Source: Promethearchaeota archaeon (lineage in GTDB: Archaea; Asgardarchaeota; Lokiarchaeia; Sigyniarchaeales; SOKP01). From it: DNA of 20,997 nucleotides. Position 1 is the first letter of the stretch. Every line of letters begins with the position of its first letter. The DNA lies in assembly GCA_011364925.1 (NCBI GenBank), contig RDOA01000057.1, positions 1 through 20,997 on the forward strand, read 5' to 3'. The notes under the pieces are model-generated. The model worked only from the letters and a program-made list of their open reading frames with translations. It had not been told where the DNA came from and did not search any database. Shown one piece after another: positions 2-20,996 of this stretch. The translations under genes and the position numbers were made by a program.

Positions 2-1591
2 AGTAGATCTTTTACATTTATAAAAAATAGAGGTACGCTAGAATGGTTATTCGATCCAAACGAGAGGATCAATCACACAATTCTATTAAGATTAAAGGGA
101 AGTAGCAGTAACGCGTTTAACATTTCAATAAACGATTTTGATGTAGAATTTTTATACCGGGATGTTAACGAATATTTAGTACTTAGCTCCAGAGTCATTT
201 ATAGATCAGCTAGTGGTTTGGTTGAGTACATTAGAACCTCGAATTCAATATCGTTGAGCACGATTAATATGGCGTCGATTGTAGCTTACGCTCGTCTTGA
301 TAAATACAACTCTTACGCGGGAGAAATAAACAATTACTCGCTAGTAATTAAAAATATAGGCTCATCTTTCGCAAGGAACATAAATATATCGTTGGCCATT
401 CCCGGAATTATCTACGATCCAATTAACTTCACAATAGAAAATGATTCGTTAAACTATAAATTAGCGGAGCTTCCAGCTACTGCAGAATCTATATTGAAAT
501 TTTCATTCTTTGTTCCTAATTCAATAATTATTAGTAATGTGACGATAAATTATAGCAACGATGAGATCGTTAAAAATATTAATTCTACCACTTTAAAAAG
601 CCATCCAAATGAAATTTATGTTGTAGCTCCAATTGATTATTTAGATCGCTTCCCTTTTATCAAAACTATCGAAATTTCCTATAATAGCTCGAATTTAGCA
701 CCGTTAATTAACGACGAACTAAATTTAACCATTTCTGTGAAAAACACTGGACCTGAAGGTTTAAATATCCAAAACATAACTTTTTCTATGAGTGACCAGT
801 TTGGTAGCCTTATTCCAATGAATACTTCTCCTTTAACAATCCCCAAAATTATGTATAACACATCTGAAATACTCACACTTAACCTAAAAAAAATAGAATG
901 GAGAGGTTACTATTATGCCCCAATTAATTTCTTTAATGCTCCCGAGCAAAATACCGTCCAGATCGCATCCTCTAAACCAATTGTAATGGGATATTTTAAC
1001 TTTCTTATAACAAAGTCAGTGGACAAAAATCAGATCGAAATTGAAGATTCTATCACAGTAAATATAACTGTAGTTAATATTGGGAATATTTGTGCTAAAA
1101 ACGTAACGTTAAACGATGCAACAAGCTTCACAGGTATTGAGTTTTCTTTAATAAGCGGAAGTTTGATTTATACAATTCCAACCATCCATCCTGGAGAAAA
1201 GGTAACATTTTTCTATAAAATTCAAGCTATAAGACAAACTTTAGTAGCATTAAAACCCGCTGTGATCGAATATTACTATTTAGTAGAAAGAAAAGCAGTA
1301 TCGAATACAATCGTGGTAAAAATCGCAATTCCGAAGCTTATAATGATCTCATTCGTTTTAGGTCCAGCATTAGCATCGCTTATTGCTTTATTCATTTTTA
1401 TTTGGCAAACTCGAAGATATAAAGCGAGAAAATACGAACTTCAGAGAAATGAGTTAACACTTTTCAAGGTTTCTAAGAGCGAAGCAGTATTAAAAGTAGA
1501 AAATACCTTAAGAGATAGATTAAATTTGATCTCTAAAGGGAAAGAAAAGATAAAAAATGAAGATAATGAGGGAGGTAACACAAAGAATTGA
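2..1591 (+). CDS. 5'-truncated single-pass membrane/surface protein with repeated DUF11/CARDB-like Ig domains; last domain plus TM helix is TRAP-beta-like
   Basis: The frame is open from base 2 (SRSFTFIKNRG...SASGLVEY), so the start lies upstream of the window and 218 is not the real start. Three 'xxIxNxG' Ig-like modules (LVIKNIGSSFARNI, ISVKNTGPE, ITVVNIGNICAKNV). C-terminal TM (LIMISFVLGPALASLIALFIFIW) followed by a basic tail. Many NxS/T sequons before the TM and none after it. Confidence 0.8.
   Translation, partial: SRSFTFIKNRGTLEWLFDPNERINHTILLRLKGSSSNAFNISINDFDVEFLYRDVNEYLVLSSRVIYRSASGLVEYIRTSNSISLSTINMASIVAYARLDKYNSYAGEINNYSLVIKNIGSSFARNINISLAIPGIIYDPINFTIENDSLNYKLAELPATAESILKFSFFVPNSIIISNVTINYSNDEIVKNINSTTLKSHPNEIYVVAPIDYLDRFPFIKTIEISYNSSNLAPLINDELNLTISVKNTGPEGLNIQNITFSMSDQFGSLIPMNTSPLTIPKIMYNTSEILTLNLKKIEWRGYYYAPINFFNAPEQNTVQIASSKPIVMGYFNFLITKSVDKNQIEIEDSITVNITVVNIGNICAKNVTLNDATSFTGIEFSLISGSLIYTIPTIHPGEKVTFFYKIQAIRQTLVALKPAVIEYYYLVERKAVSNTIVVKIAIPKLIMISFVLGPALASLIALFIFIWQTRRYKARKYELQRNELTLFKVSKSEAVLKVENTLRDRLNLISKGKEKIKNEDNEGGNTKN
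1571..1576 (+). promoter_or_regulatory. Shine-Dalgarno-like GGAGGT for the subtilase TTG start
   Basis: GGAGGT lies 11 nt upstream of TTG 1588, which overlaps the upstream TGA stop (TTGA), suggesting translational coupling. Confidence 0.6.
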
Positions 1592-4500
1592 AAGGATTAA
1601 AAAGATTTTCTATAAAATTGATAGTATTAATTCTTTTAACTATTAGTCCGGTAATTCTTTCAAATCTATTCCTTGAAAATAATAAGTCATTACTTACTAC
1701 AATTCAGATAGATAAAGAAAAAAAATTACATACATCTTATGCTAATGAAACTGCTGTAATCGTTTTTTTTAACGAATCAACATACAACATAGCTGCTGTA
1801 AACCGTTTTGAATTCTATGGTGGTTCGCTAAAAGAAAATGAAAATTGGAATGGATTATTTAATAACTTTTCAGGTTTTGCTGGAAGTATTCCTACAGAAA
1901 ATATCACATCTTTTAGAAATGAGTTCCCCGATATCAACATTGATCTTGACGAGATTGTTGATGTTCAAATGAATTACGCTAGCGTTCAAATCCAATCAAT
2001 CAATTCCACTTGGTATGTAAATGGGTATAATGGGATACCAAGTTCTAGTATAGCAGTTTTAGACAGCGGTGTGAACCCCAACCAAGATTTTCTGCAAGGA
2101 AAAATAAGTGGTTGGCAAAATTTTGTTGATCAAAAACCCATTTCCGATGATAATGGCCATGGAACTTTTATTTCTTCCGTTATAGCAGGGACTGGTTTGT
2201 TAAGTAATAGCTCTAGCATACCTTCACAAGTAAATTTATACGGAAATTACTCCCACTTAGATTTATTTAAAGACTATTTACCATCCCAAAATTATACTTT
2301 AAAAGTTTTTACGACAAATTTCTCTAGAGCAAATTCGAAAATTACAGTAAATACAACTGTTAATTTTAATCCAAGTGAGATTGATCAATTTTGGATTGAA
2401 TTATATAATGCAACACAGTTAGTCAATTCGACAAATATACAAATTCCTAACCAATTCTATTCACTAAACCATAAAATTCACTCCTCCGATCTAGGAATTT
2501 ACGATTTATTCATTACATATCATAAAAAAGGGAATACAATTCCGTTATTCTCATTTAATTCTTCAGTTCACTATTATCCCGAAGCCTACTATTCAAACTA
2601 TAACCACTTTACCGGGATTGCTAATGCTACTAATATTTTGGCATATAAAGTTGTAAATCAATCTGGAATCGGTTATGTTTCAGATTTAATATCGGCAATG
2701 GGGAGTGTAATTCAAAATAGAACAAATCATCGAATTATAACTGTTTGTCTAAGTGTTGGTACTTTAGGAGACGATGTTTCAGCAATTAACGCTGTAATTA
2801 ACGAAGTTATTGAAAACCACATATTAGTAGTAATTGCGGCGGGGAATAATGGAATTCAAGGCACCGATCCCTTTAATAGGCTAGGTACAAACAAAAAGGC
2901 TATTGTAGTAGGGGCAATTAATGATAAAGATCAGGTTACGTCTTATAGTAGTATGGGTCGAGGCGTTGGAAGTAATGTTCTAAAACCAGATATAGTTGCG
3001 CCCGGAGGGAGTACTATTCCTCACCATCGTTCAATAATCAGTGCCGATGGTAAGTCGAATAAAGCTACAGCATTGACTGGAACCTCCATATCGACTGCTA
3101 TTGTCTCAGCCGTAATTAACATTTTAATCGAAGCCAAATGGGGTACTTGGGCAGGATGGAATAGCCAAGATTTATCAAAGTGGGTTAAAATCATAAAAGC
3201 TATATTATTAATGACTGCTTCAGAAACTAATATGGAAAGAGAGGATGATCCACTAACTCAAAAAGACGAAAGTAATTATTCTCCGTCATTATTTAATGGA
3301 CTTTTGAATAGTTTAAAAGACACGCATGAAGGGTATGGCCGTTTGAACGTTCAAGCAGCTATTGATGCTTTAACTAAAACTATTGAACCAAATGTATCAG
3401 TTTCTGGCGACTTAACAAGCTCAGGAATAAATCCTTTAGGCAATCATGTTTTTGCAAGAAAGATAAGATTAGAAGAAAATGTACAATATTTATTTGAATT
3501 AAATGATGTAGATGCTGGTACTGATTTAGACTTGTTTTTATTCTCTAATGCATCAAATCAATTTGGAGAACCTATTTTATTAGAAGCGGGACAAAAGTGG
3601 TATGGTGATTTTAATTACTTTTATTTTACACCAAAATACAATCAAACAGAGTGTATTGTAATTGTTAAAGCAATAAACGGTAAGAGTAGTTTTCAATTAA
3701 ATATAACTACTGTTCCAAACAATTTTGCTCCTGAACTTAAAGTTCCTACTATTACATTTTTCGGCGGATCAAAAAATGATACCGTCATTAGTCTTCAAGA
3801 ATACTATGGAAATAACCCCGAAAAAAATTATACTATTGATAGCTACTGGTTTTATATAGACTATTTTGATAATGATTCTTCTAATGTGCCCCCTCAAGAG
3901 GTATATGTATCGATCATAGAAACTGCTGAAAATTACAGTCTATCTCAATTAATTGCGTTTGATAATAATTACACGGATGGGGCTGTTTTTAGAAGCGAGC
4001 AAATAAAATTCCCAATTCCCGGCACTTATCACTACTATTTTACTGCTAGCGACGGTTCTCATAAAGTTAGATACCCTTTGGTAGGAGAGATAAGCATTAC
4101 TATTGAATTCCCGAGTGATAGTATACAATTTCCTTACACACACGATTTTAATGAGGGTTATAATGGTTGGGTTTATAACGGAACAGGTTGGGGGGTATTA
4201 ACTCAAAATAATCAAAATGATGATAGATCTTACCTTTATTCTGGTGATTGGTTAGCTATGTATTTTGGGAGAGAACACAATTATCCTTCAGATTACACTT
4301 ATCAGCCTACTATTGTAACAGATCCCTTCCCGAATGGTACTTTGAGAAGTCCATTATTCAATATAACGCAAGTTAATCAAAATACCACCCAGGTTTTTGC
4401 TAAATTTGGATTAAGAATTAGTATTAATGCGGGAGATTTTATTAGGTTACAAATTAATCCAAATTGGACGGGATGGGTTACGTTGAAAACATACTCCGAC

Positions 4501-6393
4501 GAAGAAAGCGAATGGTTCCTTGAAGAAATAAACATAACTCAGTATATTGGAAATTTTGTACAATTTCGATTTGTAGCAGCAATTGACGACCAGTACGACC
4601 CATTACAATATAAAGGATTGATGCTAAGTTATTTTGCGCTAGAAAATTACACAAATTCTTATTCCCCTGAAATAGAATTTAATTTTAACGAAGATTTGTC
4701 CGCAAACCAGGGATTTAAATATGATCGCCTCACATTCTCTTGTCGATATTATGATATTGATGGAAATTATCCCAAATTTGTATCTCTTGAAATAAACGAT
4801 GCAAATTATTCGATGATTAATATCTATGGAGCGTGGAATGCTTCTTTCAATTCTTTTCCCAACCGCGGGATTAAATTCGTTCGATCTATTGTTTTAGGCG
4901 AGTTTGAAAATCTTAAGTTTAGATTTCATGCATCTGATGGGAGGTTTCTAAACACAACAAGATATTACAATCAAGATAATTCGCTCTTTAACTTTATTAT
5001 TCCTCCCTATTTAGAATTTAACATAAATCAGAGTAATACTTTAATTGGTTATGAGTTTTCTAGCGATGATCTATCAGATTATTATATAATAGGAACACCT
5101 AATCAAAACGAATTGACATCATGGTTAAGGGGGGATAATACCTGGCATCTTTTCTCGCGGTTTAATCAGTCTTACGTTTATGGAGGATTAGGTCAAAGTT
5201 TTGGTAGTTTAAGTCAAGGATACGGGATAAATTGGGACGCACAACTTATAACGCATCTTTTATATGTTCCTGATGATCATGATGTGTATTTGAGATATTC
5301 TTACGAGATTTCTTTACAAAACGAATTTTTCTTGGGAAGAGAGGAATTAGATAAGTGTACGGTCTCTCTATCTCAAAATTATGGTGAAGATTGGGTTGAT
5401 CTTGCGGAATACTTCTATGATTCTGAGTCCCTTTCTGGAAATGAATCTTTAGATCTCTCAAAATATTCAAATTCAATAATTTTGATTAAATTTACTTTGT
5501 ATTCAAATAATGTTACATTAGGATTAGGTAATGGATGGTTACTTTCTAATTTATATATTGGATACGATAAATCCACTGACTTTGTTTCTCCAAGTATCGA
5601 ATTTATTGAACCTTCAGAGGGTGAAACAGTTAGTTCAATTACCCCTATACATGCCAATCTTAGTGATAACGTTGAATTAGACGATTCAAGAGTATATATC
5701 TATTTGAACAATAAAATGGTTGACAGAAGTCTGCTCGATTTTAATATCGAAACGGGATTATTATCATTCAACTGGGATACGCCTTTATATTCCAACGGTC
5801 AATATCAGATCACTGTTGTTGCGTACGATACTGAAGGAAACAGAGCCGAAGCGTCTATCAGTGTTAAAGTCGAGAATGGGTTTATAAATTTACGAACATG
5901 GGGTCCATGGCTTCTAATTATAGCAAGCCTTATTATTATTGGAGTAGTAGTGTATTATATCGCTGAAAGGAGGGGAAACATCCTGTTTAAAAACCGTAAA
6001 GCTATTAACGCTGAGAAAATTAGATTAAGTCAAATTGATAAAGATCAAGCTATCAAGAGGATAGAGTTAATAGAGAGTTACGAAGAAGCGGGAAAACCTC
6101 TCACACTTCATTGTAAGTTTTGTAAATCGTGGTTTGAGGCAGATAAATTTAATTACTTCTGTCCTGTATGCGACCATGACCAAATTTATGTAGCATATAA
6201 TTGTATCAATTGTGGAAAATGGTATTTTAAAGACGATCCCAGCAGTAAATATTATTGTAAAAACAAAAATTGTAAAGGAATTAGATTGGTTAGACGAGAA
6301 AAAGTTGAAGTCCAAGAAATTTTAAGTAAAGATGGAATCTTTTTAAGAAAATATGAACCAAGAAAGAAGAAATTCAGTATTTTAGATTCATAG
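1588..6393 (+). CDS. Membrane-anchored S8 (subtilisin-like) serine peptidase with Ig-like and MAM/jelly-roll-like ectodomains and a C-terminal double zinc ribbon
   Basis: N-terminal signal/anchor (KRFSIKLIVLILLTISPVIL) and a propeptide-like segment. Catalytic motifs IAVLDSG (D159), NGHGT (H191), AAGNNG (N420), KPDIVAPG and GTSIS (S500). TM helix WLLIIASLIIIGVVVYYIA at about 5908-5964, then CKFC/CPVC/CINC/CKNKNC. Confidence 0.9.
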   Translation: MKGLKRFSIKLIVLILLTISPVILSNLFLENNKSLLTTIQIDKEKKLHTSYANETAVIVFFNESTYNIAAVNRFEFYGGSLKENENWNGLFNNFSGFAGSIPTENITSFRNEFPDINIDLDEIVDVQMNYASVQIQSINSTWYVNGYNGIPSSSIAVLDSGVNPNQDFLQGKISGWQNFVDQKPISDDNGHGTFISSVIAGTGLLSNSSSIPSQVNLYGNYSHLDLFKDYLPSQNYTLKVFTTNFSRANSKITVNTTVNFNPSEIDQFWIELYNATQLVNSTNIQIPNQFYSLNHKIHSSDLGIYDLFITYHKKGNTIPLFSFNSSVHYYPEAYYSNYNHFTGIANATNILAYKVVNQSGIGYVSDLISAMGSVIQNRTNHRIITVCLSVGTLGDDVSAINAVINEVIENHILVVIAAGNNGIQGTDPFNRLGTNKKAIVVGAINDKDQVTSYSSMGRGVGSNVLKPDIVAPGGSTIPHHRSIISADGKSNKATALTGTSISTAIVSAVINILIEAKWGTWAGWNSQDLSKWVKIIKAILLMTASETNMEREDDPLTQKDESNYSPSLFNGLLNSLKDTHEGYGRLNVQAAIDALTKTIEPNVSVSGDLTSSGINPLGNHVFARKIRLEENVQYLFELNDVDAGTDLDLFLFSNASNQFGEPILLEAGQKWYGDFNYFYFTPKYNQTECIVIVKAINGKSSFQLNITTVPNNFAPELKVPTITFFGGSKNDTVISLQEYYGNNPEKNYTIDSYWFYIDYFDNDSSNVPPQEVYVSIIETAENYSLSQLIAFDNNYTDGAVFRSEQIKFPIPGTYHYYFTASDGSHKVRYPLVGEISITIEFPSDSIQFPYTHDFNEGYNGWVYNGTGWGVLTQNNQNDDRSYLYSGDWLAMYFGREHNYPSDYTYQPTIVTDPFPNGTLRSPLFNITQVNQNTTQVFAKFGLRISINAGDFIRLQINPNWTGWVTLKTYSDEESEWFLEEINITQYIGNFVQFRFVAAIDDQYDPLQYKGLMLSYFALENYTNSYSPEIEFNFNEDLSANQGFKYDRLTFSCRYYDIDGNYPKFVSLEINDANYSMINIYGAWNASFNSFPNRGIKFVRSIVLGEFENLKFRFHASDGRFLNTTRYYNQDNSLFNFIIPPYLEFNINQSNTLIGYEFSSDDLSDYYIIGTPNQNELTSWLRGDNTWHLFSRFNQSYVYGGLGQSFGSLSQGYGINWDAQLITHLLYVPDDHDVYLRYSYEISLQNEFFLGREELDKCTVSLSQNYGEDWVDLAEYFYDSESLSGNESLDLSKYSNSIILIKFTLYSNNVTLGLGNGWLLSNLYIGYDKSTDFVSPSIEFIEPSEGETVSSITPIHANLSDNVELDDSRVYIYLNNKMVDRSLLDFNIETGLLSFNWDTPLYSNGQYQITVVAYDTEGNRAEASISVKVENGFINLRTWGPWLLIIASLIIIGVVVYYIAERRGNILFKNRKAINAEKIRLSQIDKDQAIKRIELIESYEEAGKPLTLHCKFCKSWFEADKFNYFCPVCDHDQIYVAYNCINCGKWYFKDDPSSKYYCKNKNCKGIRLVRREKVEVQEILSKDGIFLRKYEPRKKKFSILDS

Positions 6394-12721: not shown

Positions 12722-13606
12722 TTAGAAATTATCGATTAGAAACTCATTAAGCTGAGTTTTCAGAGATCTAAAGGGTTTTAAATCCCCGGCGAATTCGTTT
12801 GTTAAAATTTGCTCTTGAGAAATATTATGCTCTAATTGATTAAAAATCTCTTTTATTTTAACAAAATCTCCAGAAGCGATGAAATCTAACGAATATTCAT
12901 TTATTGGACTACAAAGAATTATCTTTTTGCATCCTTGGTCATCTAAATCGTTAAAATGTACTTCTTTTATGTTTGTTTTTGCTCGGATTTGAGTATTCAT
13001 GGTGATTGTTGCAAGTTTAGCCGAAATACTTGATGCAAATAGCTCTATATTCTCATCATTAATTTCTCTATGAAAATTATTCAAAAGAGATTTATCATAC
13101 AATTGCGAAATTATTGGTAATCCTTGAGCAGAAATGCCACAGTATATTATTTTATTTTCTATACCTAAACATTGCGCTTCGATTACTTCATCTTCTATGG
13201 GATCTCGATATTTATCCCATAGATATCCTGTTATTAGTTGTATAACTTTTGAAAATTCTGAGTGACTTGACATTTTTTTAATAATTTCTGCGGTCTCGTA
13301 ATTAGCTGTGACTTTTTCAATATATTCATCCATTAATTTAGATACTTCTTCAGAGTTTGATGGAAAATCACCAGTTATGCAATAGAATAAGCTTTGATCA
13401 TTTTCTGTTACGATATGTCTGATTATCATCCGTTCCTTACCCATATCACCCTCAAATAAGATGTTTGTTAATCGCCAAAAATTCTTAGGATTAAGACTAC
13501 TAATTAACTTTTCGACAAAAAGCACTATTTCAAAAGAAGGGTATTTATTAGAATTTGATACATAGAGTACATCTTCATCCAGAATAATTGCAAAACCGGT
13601 TAACAT
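12722..13606 (-). CDS. Hypothetical protein, predicted tandem longin-like domains
   Basis: 294-aa ORF with two segments showing a beta-beta-alpha-beta-beta-beta-alpha-alpha pattern. The second has GISAQGLPIISQ and a terminal FAGDLKPF helix motif. The fold is inferred by eye. Confidence 0.6.
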   Translation of the reverse strand: MLTGFAIILDEDVLYVSNSNKYPSFEIVLFVEKLISSLNPKNFWRLTNILFEGDMGKERMIIRHIVTENDQSLFYCITGDFPSNSEEVSKLMDEYIEKVTANYETAEIIKKMSSHSEFSKVIQLITGYLWDKYRDPIEDEVIEAQCLGIENKIIYCGISAQGLPIISQLYDKSLLNNFHREINDENIELFASSISAKLATITMNTQIRAKTNIKEVHFNDLDDQGCKKIILCSPINEYSLDFIASGDFVKIKEIFNQLEHNISQEQILTNEFAGDLKPFRSLKTQLNEFLIDNF

Positions 13607-13872: not shown

Positions 13873-14667
13873 ATGAAAGTCGTAAGATTAATCGAGAAGA
13901 AGAAAATCCAAAAAGCAGCCAGTCTCCTTTTAAATTCGAAAGAAGCAATTGTGCTAACGGGGGCAGGGGTCTCTACTGAGTCTGGAATACCCGATTTTCG
14001 TGGCGAAGGAGGTATCTGGGAGAAATACAAGCCTGAAATCTATGGTAATATCAGCGCATTTTTAAAAAATCCCGCTAAGTTCTGGGAGATGGCCCAAAAG
14101 ATCGCCCCTAACTTGTTCAAAGCAAAACCAAATCCCGGACATTACGCTCTCGCAGAATTGGAGAAATTGGGTATAATTAAAGCTGTGATTACTCAAAACA
14201 TCGATGAACTCCACCAAAAAGCCGGTTCTATAATTGTTTACGAAATACATGGCAGTGTCAATAGATTTAATTGTGTAGCGTGTAATGCCTCCTACACAAA
14301 AGAACAAATTCTAAGAAAATTGAAGAAAGAAAAGAAAGGGGGTCCTTCTTGCGAGTATTGCGCTGCTCCTTTGAAACCTTCGGCCGTTTTGTTTGGAGAA
14401 CCTTTACCACGATTTGAGAAATTCCAATCCCAAGCTTTAGCTCAAAAAGCAGATGTAATGTTAATAGCTGGTTCCTCTCTCTCGGTTGCTCCTGCGTGTT
14501 ATTTACCGCTTTATACGCTTAGGGAAAATGGAAAATTAATTATCGTGAATGACCAACCAACAGATCTGGACGATAAAGCTGAGGTTGTAATTCATCATAA
14601 AACGGGAGCAGTTTTACCTTTAATCGTTGAAGAAATCAAAAGATTACAAATTTTACAAAAAGCATAA
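13873..14667 (+). CDS. cobB: NAD-dependent protein deacylase, Sir2/sirtuin family
   Basis: GAGVSTESGIPDFRG, TQNIDELH, EIHG, Zn ligands CVAC/CEYC, VLFGEPLP and GSSLSVAPA. Confidence 0.96.
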   Translation: MKVVRLIEKKKIQKAASLLLNSKEAIVLTGAGVSTESGIPDFRGEGGIWEKYKPEIYGNISAFLKNPAKFWEMAQKIAPNLFKAKPNPGHYALAELEKLGIIKAVITQNIDELHQKAGSIIVYEIHGSVNRFNCVACNASYTKEQILRKLKKEKKGGPSCEYCAAPLKPSAVLFGEPLPRFEKFQSQALAQKADVMLIAGSSLSVAPACYLPLYTLRENGKLIIVNDQPTDLDDKAEVVIHHKTGAVLPLIVEEIKRLQILQKA

Positions 14668-16990: not shown

Positions 16991-17797
16991 TCATTTCTGA
17001 AGGATATCAATAATTTTCTTTACTGCTTTCTGTAAATAAAACTCCGCCATTCCAAACCTAATATTGGTATCAAAGATCAAGATAAGAATGTAGATATCCA
17101 ATATGTTTTCAGAGAAAATGAGTTCGTTGTTTTTCGAGGTATAAAATAACTTAAGAATAGAATTGTTTGATATTTTTACTCTAAAATCAACTTCTTTTAA
17201 AAATCGCTTTAGACTTGCATCATTAAAAGAGGTGAAAATTAGTTTTCCTCGATTGGTTATGAGTACAGCACCATTAAGTTCCTTCAATTTTTGGAATTCA
17301 TTTAGAAATTCCGTGATCATTCTTTCCTTTTTTAAATCAAATTCAGTTGAAAAAGGTTCTCTTATAATATCTTCAATGAGATAATTAAGATGCTCGTCAT
17401 ATACATATTCTATATCAGTTCTAATGTTGTGCTTATTCGAATAAGAGAGAAATGTCGAGTTAACTTTTGAAATTATCGCCTCTAGTAGCTCCAAGTTTTC
17501 AATAGCACTACAAAGAAGACTGTAATATAATCCTTTTTTTTCAAACACGACTAATTTGATTCCACCACCCATTTCAACGGTTTTAATTTTATCTCCAATA
17601 AGTTCTTTAGTAAAAGACATCAAAGCTGTAAAATAAGAAGAAATAAGTTGTTCTTGCTCTATTCGGTAAAGATTCGTGAGATTTAACCCATAGATGCATA
17701 TTCCTGATTTATTAAATATGAACAGATTGTGGATGTTCAATTTCTCAGGTACTCTTTTAATCTTCGAGATAATTGCAGAATGATCGGGAATTCCCAT
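16991..17797 (-). CDS. Longin-like plus roadblock/LAMTOR-like fusion protein
   Basis: N-terminal domain: LFIFNKSGICIY...LISSYFTALMSFTKELIGDKIKTVEM (longin pattern). C-terminal domain: LNGAVLITNRGKLIFTS...ILILIFD..IRFGMAEFYLQKAVKKI (roadblock pattern). Confidence 0.7.
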   Translation of the reverse strand: MGIPDHSAIISKIKRVPEKLNIHNLFIFNKSGICIYGLNLTNLYRIEQEQLISSYFTALMSFTKELIGDKIKTVEMGGGIKLVVFEKKGLYYSLLCSAIENLELLEAIISKVNSTFLSYSNKHNIRTDIEYVYDEHLNYLIEDIIREPFSTEFDLKKERMITEFLNEFQKLKELNGAVLITNRGKLIFTSFNDASLKRFLKEVDFRVKISNNSILKLFYTSKNNELIFSENILDIYILILIFDTNIRFGMAEFYLQKAVKKIIDILQK

Positions 17798-18855: not shown

Positions 18856-19144
18856 ATCGATGATTTATTATTGTAGTTCAATGAAGAGTTGTAGTTCTTT
18901 ATTGATTAAATTTTCATTTTTTTAAGAGATTAGAATTGAATTACAAGGTAAAATCGAAAAATGTATGCTCGAGTTTTGAAGCTGTTAATATCAAATCTAA
19001 ATGCTCGTATCCTTGAATTAGCGTTGCTGTACTCAGAATCTAAAGATTACGCTCTACTCCTCATTATTTAAGAGCTTATTACAATTTTCTTAGATCAAGT
19101 GTAGACTCATAATATTAACCTTCTATGATGTTTTTTCAACTAGA

Positions 19145-19218
19145 TTTAAATAGAAGTAGAAGAAATATACTTTAAGAACAAATTTATTTTTAAAACTTAT
19201 TTAAACAATTAAAGGAGG
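19145..19218 (+). promoter_or_regulatory. Putative histone gene promoter (TTTAAATA) and strong Shine-Dalgarno (AGGAGG)
   Basis: TTTAAATA at 19145-19152; AGGAGG at 19213-19218, 8 nt before ATG 19227. Confidence 0.6.
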
Positions 19219-19226
19219 AATAAAAA

Positions 19227-19433
19227 ATGGCTAAAAAAGCAGCTGCTGCAACACCAGACGTTTTATTTGTAAAATCCAAAATTCGAGACTACATCAAATC
19301 AAAGGGTTGTAACACAAGTGGAGATGTGATTGACGGACCTGCACTTAACGCCGCAATTACTGGTATTCTCGATAAAGCGATTGGTCGAGCTAAGGCTAAT
19401 GGAAGAAAGACTGTTCAAGAAAAAGATCTGTAG
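19227..19433 (+). CDS. Short histone-fold protein (alpha3-truncated, Bd0055/face-to-face-like) with an N-terminal tail
   Basis: Histone L2/alpha3 signature RAKANGRKTVQEKDL; alpha1 VLFVKSKIRDYIK; L1 NTS; strong SD upstream and terminator downstream. Confidence 0.9.
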   Translation: MAKKAAAATPDVLFVKSKIRDYIKSKGCNTSGDVIDGPALNAAITGILDKAIGRAKANGRKTVQEKDL

Positions 19434-19468: not shown

Positions 19469-19509
19469 AAGGAAGAGTTTGTATTAGTACCTTTTATTCC
19501 TTTTTTTTT
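19469..19509 (+). terminator. Histone gene terminator: imperfect hairpin followed by T9
   Basis: AAGGAA (19469-19474) pairs with TTCCTT (19497-19502), with an inner GTA-ttag-TAC stem; T-run at 19501-19509. Confidence 0.6.
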
Positions 19510-19703: not shown

Positions 19704-20249
19704 TTAGTCAATATGATGTGAATTAAACTCTTTATCAATTATAAAAAAATCAATCGCAATTACACTTTTTAACCTCTGCAACTTTTCTTTTAGTAATTTA
19801 ACTCGTTCATAAGGTCCTGAAACTGCTATGATTTCTAAACATTTTTCAAATTCTAAATGTATATGCATTGTTGATGTAATTACATCGTGAAAATGGTGTT
19901 GAATGTCGTTTTTTCGAATTTCATCTGTTTGTTGAACATTAGCATAAATTGGACCAGATTCATATTCGTGATCGTGATGATCATCGTCATGATTTACTTC
20001 ATGCGAGTGTTCATGTGAGAGTTCATTTCTGTGCTTACCGGGAAAATGTTCGTGCAACATAATAATAGGTATGCACCCAACAACATTCCCTGTCGTAACT
20101 CTTATATTTTCTTCACTGACCATTAAAGAATGCATTGCTTTTCTTATACTATCCGATCGGGAAATACCTAATTTTTCCCTAAATGCTTCAAACTTTTCAT
20201 ATAAATCTTTAGGAAGAGAAACTGTAAAGCGTTTGTATTCCTCCATCAT
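19704..20249 (-). CDS. nikR: NikR-family nickel-responsive regulator with a His-rich insertion
   Basis: RHH N-terminus (KRFTVSLPKDLYEKFE...SRSDSIRKAM); metal-binding domain DIQHHFHDVITSTMHIHLEFEKCLEIIAVSG retaining the His/His-x-His/Cys Ni ligands. The start could be 20246, 20249 or 20255. Confidence 0.92.
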   Translation of the reverse strand: MMEEYKRFTVSLPKDLYEKFEAFREKLGISRSDSIRKAMHSLMVSEENIRVTTGNVVGCIPIIMLHEHFPGKHRNELSHEHSHEVNHDDDHHDHEYESGPIYANVQQTDEIRKNDIQHHFHDVITSTMHIHLEFEKCLEIIAVSGPYERVKLLKEKLQRLKSVIAIDFFIIDKEFNSHHID

Positions 20250-20282
20250 AAACATCTTACAACATTATAATAAATACAAAAT

Positions 20283-20996
20283 TCATTTCTTAATTAAAAT
20301 AGCAATAGGTACACTTGCCTCCCGCCACTGGGCTATCTTACCCGAATATTCTAAGTCTAACTTCACTCGTCCGTGATCGCCTAATATTATCATCAATGAA
20401 TTATTCCTTAATTGTTTGTAATTCCCTAAAATCCATTTATCCGTGCGTAGAATTAACTTATCGATCAGATCCTCAGGTGTTCGCTGTTTTAAAGCTTGTT
20501 GTTGTTTGTGTAGATTCTCAAAATCCAGATAATGCATCCAAGAAAGCTCAAAATTATTAATTACCTTAGCAGATTCCACCCAAGTAGCCATATCAGTTTC
20601 TTTTGGAATCGAATAAGTTCCTCCATCGTATCTTTCAATATCCTTTTTTCGCCCTACAAAACAAGATTTTTTCCCATTGTCGTTTAAAAATTTAAGTAAA
20701 TGAAACCCATTAGGTTCGTAATCAAATCCTCCATACATAATTTGATGTAAAACCCCTAGAGTATAAGGATTCTTAGTTGAAAGGAGTAACATAACCTGGG
20801 AATTAGTAATCATAAATTGGGGTTTGTGATAAGTGAGTTCGAATAATCCAAAATTATCTATGGCGTTAACAGAGATTCTCTCAACACCTTGATACATCTC
20901 TACAACTGATTGAACGGGTTCCGGAACAGTTCCAGAAGGAGGATCAATCCCCAACAACTTGATAATGGTTGCGGGTAATTGATTTAAATAGCATTT
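20283..20996 (-). CDS. 5'-truncated alkaline-phosphatase-superfamily (nucleotide pyrophosphatase/PglZ-like) protein, compact and degenerate
   Basis: The frame is open to the window end (KCYLNQLPATIIKLLGID). Motifs AIDNFG, WMHYLDFENLH, IILGDHG and EASVPIAI. Confidence 0.65.
   Translation of the reverse strand, partial: KCYLNQLPATIIKLLGIDPPSGTVPEPVQSVVEMYQGVERISVNAIDNFGLFELTYHKPQFMITNSQVMLLLSTKNPYTLGVLHQIMYGGFDYEPNGFHLLKFLNDNGKKSCFVGRKKDIERYDGGTYSIPKETDMATWVESAKVINNFELSWMHYLDFENLHKQQQALKQRTPEDLIDKLILRTDKWILGNYKQLRNNSLMIILGDHGRVKLDLEYSGKIAQWREASVPIAILIKK

Follow-up and report, generated by a model that had tools for sequence, protein, structure and literature searches.

The closest solved relative of the protein described here is HLp of Leptospira perolatii (PDB 9QT0-9QT2), which wraps DNA as a tetramer and is also able to bridge it in crystals and simulations (PMC12701072). 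In archaea, wild-type HTkC of Thermococcus kodakarensis (PDB 9F2C) wraps and compacts DNA, the R45A mutant is dimeric and no DNA bridging was shown (10.64898/2025.12.06.692711). HBb (Bd0055) of Bdellovibrio (PDB 8CMP, 8FVX) has an alpha3-truncated fold and is dimeric. A further non-nucleosomal histone of Lokiarchaeia, HLoC, known from Lokiarchaeum ossiferum and its relatives, has a short C-terminus behind RxTxxxxD. It was labelled face-to-face (FtF) in a preprint and makes up 0.2-2.4% of the proteome of four cultured strains; the same work reported tail methylation and almost no acetylation on Asgard histones, whose tails are 16-32 aa long with more than 30% Lys, and detected phosphorylation on none of the archaeal histones (10.64898/2026.07.02.735847). 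Lastly, the Rab GTPase histones of Lokiarchaeota carry a C-terminal FtF-like domain (PMC11390915).

Here we report on a 68-aa histone encoded in a window of 20,997 nucleotides (the whole stretch of DNA that was analysed), which is contig C68 of a genome of 3.9 Mb and 100% completeness. The overall best explanation, to which we give a probability of about three in four, is that a monocistronic gene encodes an FtF ring histone acting as a second architectural chromatin protein.

A standalone gene in a genome with seven histones

The gene is accompanied by the following elements.

19124..19130, + strand: upstream element TATGATG, about 20 nt 5' of the TATA box, a conserved block in 65 orthologous upstream regions
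19145..19152, + strand: candidate archaeal TATA box TTTAAATA, with a TTTAAA column block at least 85% conserved in 65 aligned orthologous upstream regions
19214..19221, + strand: Shine-Dalgarno (SD) region GGAGGAAT, kept in 65 of 66 orthologues
19227..19433, + strand: gene of the 68-aa alpha3-truncated FtF histone (pI 9.8, net charge +6)
19501..19509, + strand: T9 tract, probable archaeal intrinsic terminator; T tracts also lie 3' of the stop in the orthologues displayed
19704..20255, - strand: convergent NikR-like gene (Pfam NikR_C and RHH_1), the nearest downstream gene at 53 of 66 orthologous loci

The open reading frame 19227-19433 and the residue numbering (K3, K4, T9, G37-P38-A39) given in a preliminary description of the window are borne out, the chain ending one residue past the Asp of RxTxxxxD. 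Since an in-frame stop lies two codons 5' of the ATG and no further ATG, GTG or TTG occurs ahead of the fold, the N-terminal segment is translated, provided that the gene is, which upholds the earlier view of this tail as part of the protein. The genome had been taken for a probable Asgard one, and homologues indeed carry the names Lokiarchaeota and Promethearchaeota; Hermod-, Hod- and Thorarchaeota titles on close orthologues look like mislabels, one 'Hermodarchaeota' locus being that of a genome of the source family (f1).

The strong SD, TATA box, terminator and standalone layout proposed earlier also stood up to comparison, given the conservation of the first two among orthologues and a T9 run that fits an archaeal terminator; the CCTCC anti-SD is present in the source genome. 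A scan for bacterial-type promoters and terminators, which is uninformative here, returned no hairpin terminator at the histone gene. The gene stands alone between a divergent GHMP kinase gene and the convergent NikR-like gene; the upstream neighbour differs among the 66 orthologous loci compared, and the NikR-like gene appears to be a conserved neighbour with no evident functional tie to the histone. Taken together, the conserved promoter block, SD, T run and standalone layout argue that the gene is probably monocistronic and strongly expressed. From the position of the TATA box, transcription would start near 19170-19178, so that the AT-rich leader would span some 50 nt, and TATGATG may be a regulator site. 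In the family this leader shows TTTAAA units repeating about every 10-12 nt, and in one orthologue a stretch of about 35 nt within it is duplicated in tandem.

Other genes of the window deserve mention. A sirtuin-like gene with a QNID motif lies at 13873-14667 (+), about 5 kb upstream of the histone gene. A subtilisin-like membrane-anchored protein of 1601 aa with a C-terminal multi-cysteine zinc-ribbon region is encoded at 1588-6393 (+), and tandem longin/roadblock-type Asgard look-alikes at 12722-13606 (-) and 16991-17797 (-) have no strong Pfam match, the product of the latter matching Sybindin weakly (E 0.007). The NikR-like protein contains a long His/Asp-rich insertion separating the RHH and nickel-binding domains, and the phosphopentomutase/alkaline-phosphatase-like gene at 20283-20957 (-) has probably been cut at its 5' side where the contig ends, its homologues measuring 264 aa.

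The source genome encodes seven histones, five nucleosomal and two FtF paralogues. The second FtF paralogue (C38:19717-19911) has 65 aa, the same hinge and MAKK start and a more basic C-terminus ending in KARDL; its gene lies downstream of an Alba-like gene and adjoins an SMC/Rad50-like gene. Both paralogues occur in most genomes of the source family.

A lokiarchaeal variant of the face-to-face class

The protein itself can be divided as follows.

19227..19256, + strand: disordered N-terminal segment, residues 1-10 (MAKK at 19227-19238, a variable Ala/Gly/Thr linker, T9-P10 at 19251-19256)
19272..19301, + strand: helix alpha1, residues 16-25 (DSSP on the model)
19335..19343, + strand: G37-P38-A39 hinge, splitting alpha2 into 32-36 and 38-57 (alignment with HLp; AlphaFold2 model)
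19386..19430, + strand: FtF tetramer and L2 signature, R54, N58, R60-K61-T62, D67 and C-terminal L68

An AlphaFold2 model built from a 99-row alignment (mean pLDDT 88.5), which superseded a poor one from a shallow alignment (pLDDT 68, rmsd 8 Å), has helices at 16-25, 32-36 and 38-57 (DSSP), and no helix of at least 4 residues past 57, hence none for alpha3; its first residues are disordered, with a pLDDT of 53 over residues 1-10. It fits HLp with an rmsd of 1.2 Å over 56 residues (target TM 0.90) and HTkC or HBb with 1.4-2.0 Å. The protein does not cluster with canonical nucleosomal histones, whose structures fit worse (2.4-3.2 Å) and whose family models stay below cut-off (PF00808, 13 bits vs 21.4; NF043032, 16 bits vs 50). 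HLp was likewise the best match in a sequence search of the PDB (E 1.9e-10), followed by HBb and HTkC; a match to T4 lysozyme (E 0.63) was set aside as chance.

As in alpha3-truncated histones, alpha3 is reduced to 3-4 residues and alpha2 is shortened, and the 10-residue alpha3 and long alpha2 of archaeal nucleosomal histones (HMf, HLoA/B) are absent. The FtF hallmark residues as defined in PMC11390915 are all present: the interface Arg and Asn (Haloferax R41 and N45 correspond to R54 and N58), and RxTxxxxD followed by the free C-terminal carboxyl. R54, N58, R60, K61 and D67 occur in all 178 close homologues and T62 in 177; the chain always ends one residue beyond D67, with L in 175 sequences and I in 3. 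The exposed basic residues of alpha1 expected of an FtF histone (K16, K18, R20 and K24) are invariant in the homologue alignment, and the alpha1 DNA-contact residues K16, S17, K18, R20 and K24 align with HLp A13/S14/K15/K17/K21. The initial call of a non-nucleosomal histone with truncated alpha3 can therefore be sharpened to the FtF tetramer type of HLp and HTkC, as distinct from the dimer type of Bd0055/HBb, R54 and N58 being present where HBb has Ser and Asp, and the tetramer Arg/Asn being what bacterial dimer histones lack. The protein is a lokiarchaeal variant of the FtF class, marked by a two-residue alpha2 hinge.

A prediction with four copies scored 0.89 vs 0.00 for the best control, with runs agreeing in 100% of contacts and a partner pLDDT of at least 88, a pass that may reflect the predictor's memory of solved rings (HTkC/HLp) and that refers to a calibration unlike the present job, where the mark was attained for 20 of 30 solved pairs and for 1 of 23 single chains. 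The copy whose contacts were read meets its dimer mate and, via 53-58 and 66-67, a third copy, and the predicted dimer-dimer contact (53-54, 57-58, 66-67) equals the HLp interface R49/S52/N53/T61. This oligomer model, which the preliminary description had proposed as a check, thus predicts a homotetramer contact via C-terminal alpha2, L2 and alpha3, as read from the contacts of one copy; these are consistent with a closed torus and cover one of its two interfaces.

By analogy with HLp and HTkC, we consider a homotetramer ring wrapping about 60 bp most likely. Two monomers would form a histone-fold dimer, and a ring of two such dimers would be held shut by R54, N58, R60 and the free C-terminal carboxyl, so that extension into a hypernucleosome would be precluded. 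Some 50-60 bp of DNA may be wound on the ring via alpha1 (K16, S17, K18, R20, K24), L1 (T30, G32) and L2 (K61, T62), in a manner that would be free of sequence specificity. The replacement of HLp R59, a main DNA-binding residue, by Q64 counts against HLp-like wrapping. The tetrameric state in solution, the wrapping and the probable abundance of the protein are all proposed from what HLp and HTkC do.

A glycine hinge shared with fusion proteins

The preliminary description pointed to a helix-breaking GPA insertion near the start of alpha2. The break was recovered in the model, exactly at G37; the three-residue size was not, as Gly is common to HLp and the insertion therefore amounts to two residues. 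Core spacing is 45 in the hinged family vs 43 in ordinary FtF histones. G37 is found in 178 of the 178 family sequences, position 38 is P in 121, D in 34, K in 8, A in 6, N in 4 and another residue in 5 (E is among the variants), and position 39 is mostly A or S; with an invariant Gly and a variable Pro, the break is a Gly hinge and not a Pro feature. Relatives have 1, 2 or 6 extra residues at this site, so that it behaves as an exposed hinge. Both FtF paralogues of the source genome and neighbouring families of the class have the hinge, the two-residue insertion marking a clade of Lokiarchaeia.

The same spacing recurs in Rab-GTPase, TPR-TIR and LRR fusion proteins. Full-length Rab-histone fusions occur in 5 of the 135 genomes of the source family, which suggests that the published Rab histones arose from the hinged clade; none was found in the source genome. 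A tree of 80 cores grouped the fusions with the hinged clade (support 92/74), a grouping that is weak because the insertion columns feed it. The hinge offers a marker tying Rab-GTPase-histone fusions to a standalone FtF family. Our literature search found no description of the hinge, of the exclusion between FtF and HLoC or of the Rab-histone link. As a side observation, hinged FtF domains fused to TPR and TIR_2 proteins could be defence sensors.

Could the hinge alter the DNA path, so that the protein bends or bridges DNA like HBb or MJ1647 instead of wrapping it, or provide a docking surface for partners that would suit the Rab, TPR-TIR and LRR fusions? The invariance of G37, the high-confidence break in the modelled alpha2, the equal spacing in Rab-histone and other fusions and the bridging by HLp in crystals and simulations (PMC12701072) speak for such a role, which we nevertheless regard as quite improbable: all tetramer residues are retained, the core superposes on HLp at 1.2 Å over 56 residues, the insertion varies in sequence and in length, and HTkC is without bridging (10.64898/2025.12.06.692711). 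We favour a wrapping ring in which the hinge would be a tolerated clade-level indel that frees the first turn of alpha2; as no solved FtF histone carries the insertion, the DNA geometry may differ all the same.

A conserved lysine pair at the N-terminus

The stretch ahead of the fold varies between 3 and 20 residues (mode 9) in the 178 family sequences. M[AS]KK opens 174 of them, while the linker is free to vary, and three members have no tail; the Lys pair singled out in the preliminary description is thus conserved and, in the source genome, histone-specific, which supports some function. MAKK opens five of the seven histones of this genome, three of them nucleosomal, and begins only 0.4% of its long ORFs; of the non-histone proteins in a set of 48 basic SD-led ORFs, in which ribosomal ones are numerous, none has it. 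Its absence from the ribosomal proteins of the source genome rules out a generic start of highly expressed genes.

Three further claims about the tail did not survive. The T9-P10 phospho-site has no depth, since Ser/Thr-Pro occurs in 2 of 178 sequences only, the query and a 99% identical twin of the same species. Nor is a tail unusual for the class: positively charged tails are reported on most bacterial FtF histones (PMC11390915), and we see such tails too. Distant FtF histones without the hinge start with MAKK in 19 of 56 cases, a count biased upward by the presence of MAKK in the search profile, and Lys-rich ends of similar or greater length occur on unhinged FtF histones, including a Planctomycetota protein and one of Heimdallarchaeum endolithica. 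Lastly, the data lend no support to a 'separate route to regulated chromatin', since the same MAKK opens nucleosomal histones of this genome and many FtF histones elsewhere. Short basic FtF ends being already known in bacteria and here seen also in several Asgard lineages, the tail is a modest point. Other Asgard lineages, H. endolithica included, have K-rich FtF N-termini often beside tail-less paralogues of the same genome, and many of the distant matches are natural doublets, with two FtF histones in tandem over 117-134 aa.

MAKK might be no protein feature at all and merely reflect a translation-start cassette (SD, A-rich spacer, ATG GCT AAA AAA) that is maintained for strong expression or has spread from one histone gene to another by copying. 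The FtF gene shares its SD region with all five nucleosomal histone genes of the genome, and the leader GGAGGAATA stands at these six of seven histone genes (contigs C11, C28, C36, C51, C112 and C68) and, out of 147 GGAGG-led ORFs, precedes only 8; furthermore, codons 3-4 are AAA in 91% of cases vs 79% for core lysines. We hold this origin to be very improbable. Over 68 genes, AAG appears 12 times at codons 3-4 and a non-Lys residue once, and the A-rich Asn and Ile codons never substitute for Lys, which argues for selection on the lysines; the second paralogue retains MAKK behind a different SD region, and ribosomal protein genes lack such a start. GGAGGAATA is common within the source family; as an Asgard-wide histone leader it was rejected, since in the family of the cultured strains most histone genes lack it and since it also precedes unrelated genes.

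The Lys pair probably matters, then, most simply as an extra DNA contact, the floppy MAKK end placing two added positive charges beside the DNA face of alpha1. Alternatively, the ring would be the same and K3/K4 would be a regulated methylation or acetylation site for the enzymes that act on HLoA/HLoB-type N-termini of nucleosomal histones, so that FtF chromatin would be co-regulated with hypernucleosomes. The retention of MAKK despite a free linker, the tolerance of AAG and its near restriction to histones agree with such a site; LoHAT2 has been modelled on Lys3 of a tail starting with AKK, and Loki tails were shown to be methylated (10.64898/2026.07.02.735847), and the sirtuin gene is near. 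We find it unlikely nonetheless, as a plain DNA contact accounts equally for the Lys conservation and three family members are tail-less. The segment falls short of the tailed Asgard type, with about 10 aa and 20% Lys (family mode 9 residues, 2 Lys) vs 16-32 aa and more than 30% Lys in the modified HLoB/HMpB tails; acetylation of tails was barely detected in vivo, with no reader domains found (10.64898/2026.07.02.735847), and HLoC, the apparent replacement of the FtF histone, is without MAKK. Modification of the tail is possible, and the route would be shared with nucleosomal histones.

Two short-alpha3 histones with nearly complementary distribution

The family profile matches 125 of 134 other genomes of the source family and 0 of 14 genomes of f3, so that 126 of 135 f1 genomes, counting the source genome, have at least one strongly conserved FtF histone; FtF genes occur in many other Asgard families. 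HLoC was searched with a query from the f3 genome G138, whose histones equal the published L. ossiferum set letter for letter, and matched 27 of the 161 class genomes, namely all of f2, f3, f5, f6 and f7 and the five genomes of genus g2, the sole f1 genus without an FtF match. Altogether, 129 of the 161 have FtF only, 25 HLoC only, 2 both and 5 neither; these genomes are related and stand for a handful of independent events, not 161, and we claim no P value. The FtF family has no match in G138 even at E 10, an absence with which the zero alpha3 targets in the preprint table agree (10.64898/2026.07.02.735847). Since cultured Loki strains have HLoC only, their proteomes never sampled the hinged FtF family.

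A figure legend had led us to suspect that the 68-aa protein is itself HLoC. This was ruled out on sequence: it lacks the long basic insertion before RxT of that 76-79-aa type, a profile search of the source genome found no HLoC and scored the 68-aa histone at E 0.04 only, and the match between the HLoC and hinged FtF profiles has a probability of 9.9%. That HLoC is a diverged orthologue at the same locus was rejected as well, the two having no common neighbours and both being carried by two f7 genomes (one labelled Helarchaeota).

The simplest reading is that of two paralogous short-alpha3 histones subject to reciprocal loss, which would imply interchangeable roles. The FtF histone seems to fill the chromatin role that cultured relatives fill with HLoC, that is, it would be a second architectural chromatin protein alongside five nucleosomal histones, in a slot that HLoC may take in other Lokiarchaeia. 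The near-exclusive pattern suggests that this second slot is required and proposes for HLoC, which was set aside in the preprint (10.64898/2026.07.02.735847), a function that can be tested. It is tempting to go further and to propose that almost all lokiarchaeal genomes retain one short-alpha3 type that is non-nucleosomal, hinged FtF or HLoC, and that in the largest, uncultured family the FtF type bears a nucleosomal-type AKK N-terminus served by the same writers and erasers. We judge this rather unlikely as a whole; if true, two structurally different chromatin particles would be under one tail-based control.

Comparison with known histones

HLp, at 46% identity and an rmsd of 1.2 Å, shares with the 68-aa histone the truncated alpha2/alpha3, the tetramer residues, the RD clamp and most DNA-contact residues. 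Its disordered N-terminus covers 9 residues before the fold, the first seven unresolved, which equals the mode of the present family. Unlike HLp, our protein has the two-residue hinge after G37, the Lys pair at 3-4 and Q64 for R59, and it shares its genome with five nucleosomal histones, whereas the host of HLp has no other histone. HTkC (36% identity, rmsd 1.4-1.8 Å) is likewise an archaeal FtF histone beside nucleosomal ones, with R45 equivalent to R54 and a VKSK start, but it is tail-less, has a longer L1 and no alpha2 insertion, and carries His instead of the Asp of the RD clamp. HBb resembles the protein in its alpha3-truncated fold and alpha1/L1 (about 45% identity) and differs in lacking R54 and N58, in being dimeric and in its poorer fit to the model (rmsd 1.7-2.0 Å).

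Among the histones of Lokiarchaeia, HLoC differs by its 76-79 aa with the long insertion before RxT, by the lack of R54/N58, hinge and MAKK, and by its other gene neighbourhoods. The tailed nucleosomal HLoB/HMpB, of which the source genome has one gene (C112), open with the same AKK, yet they have a full alpha3, are of the hypernucleosome type and bear tails of 16-32 aa with more than 30% Lys and demonstrated methylation. The Rab GTPase histones (PMC11390915) carry the same two-residue insertion and are found in genomes of the source family; they differ in the fused Ras-family domain and in their patchy occurrence.
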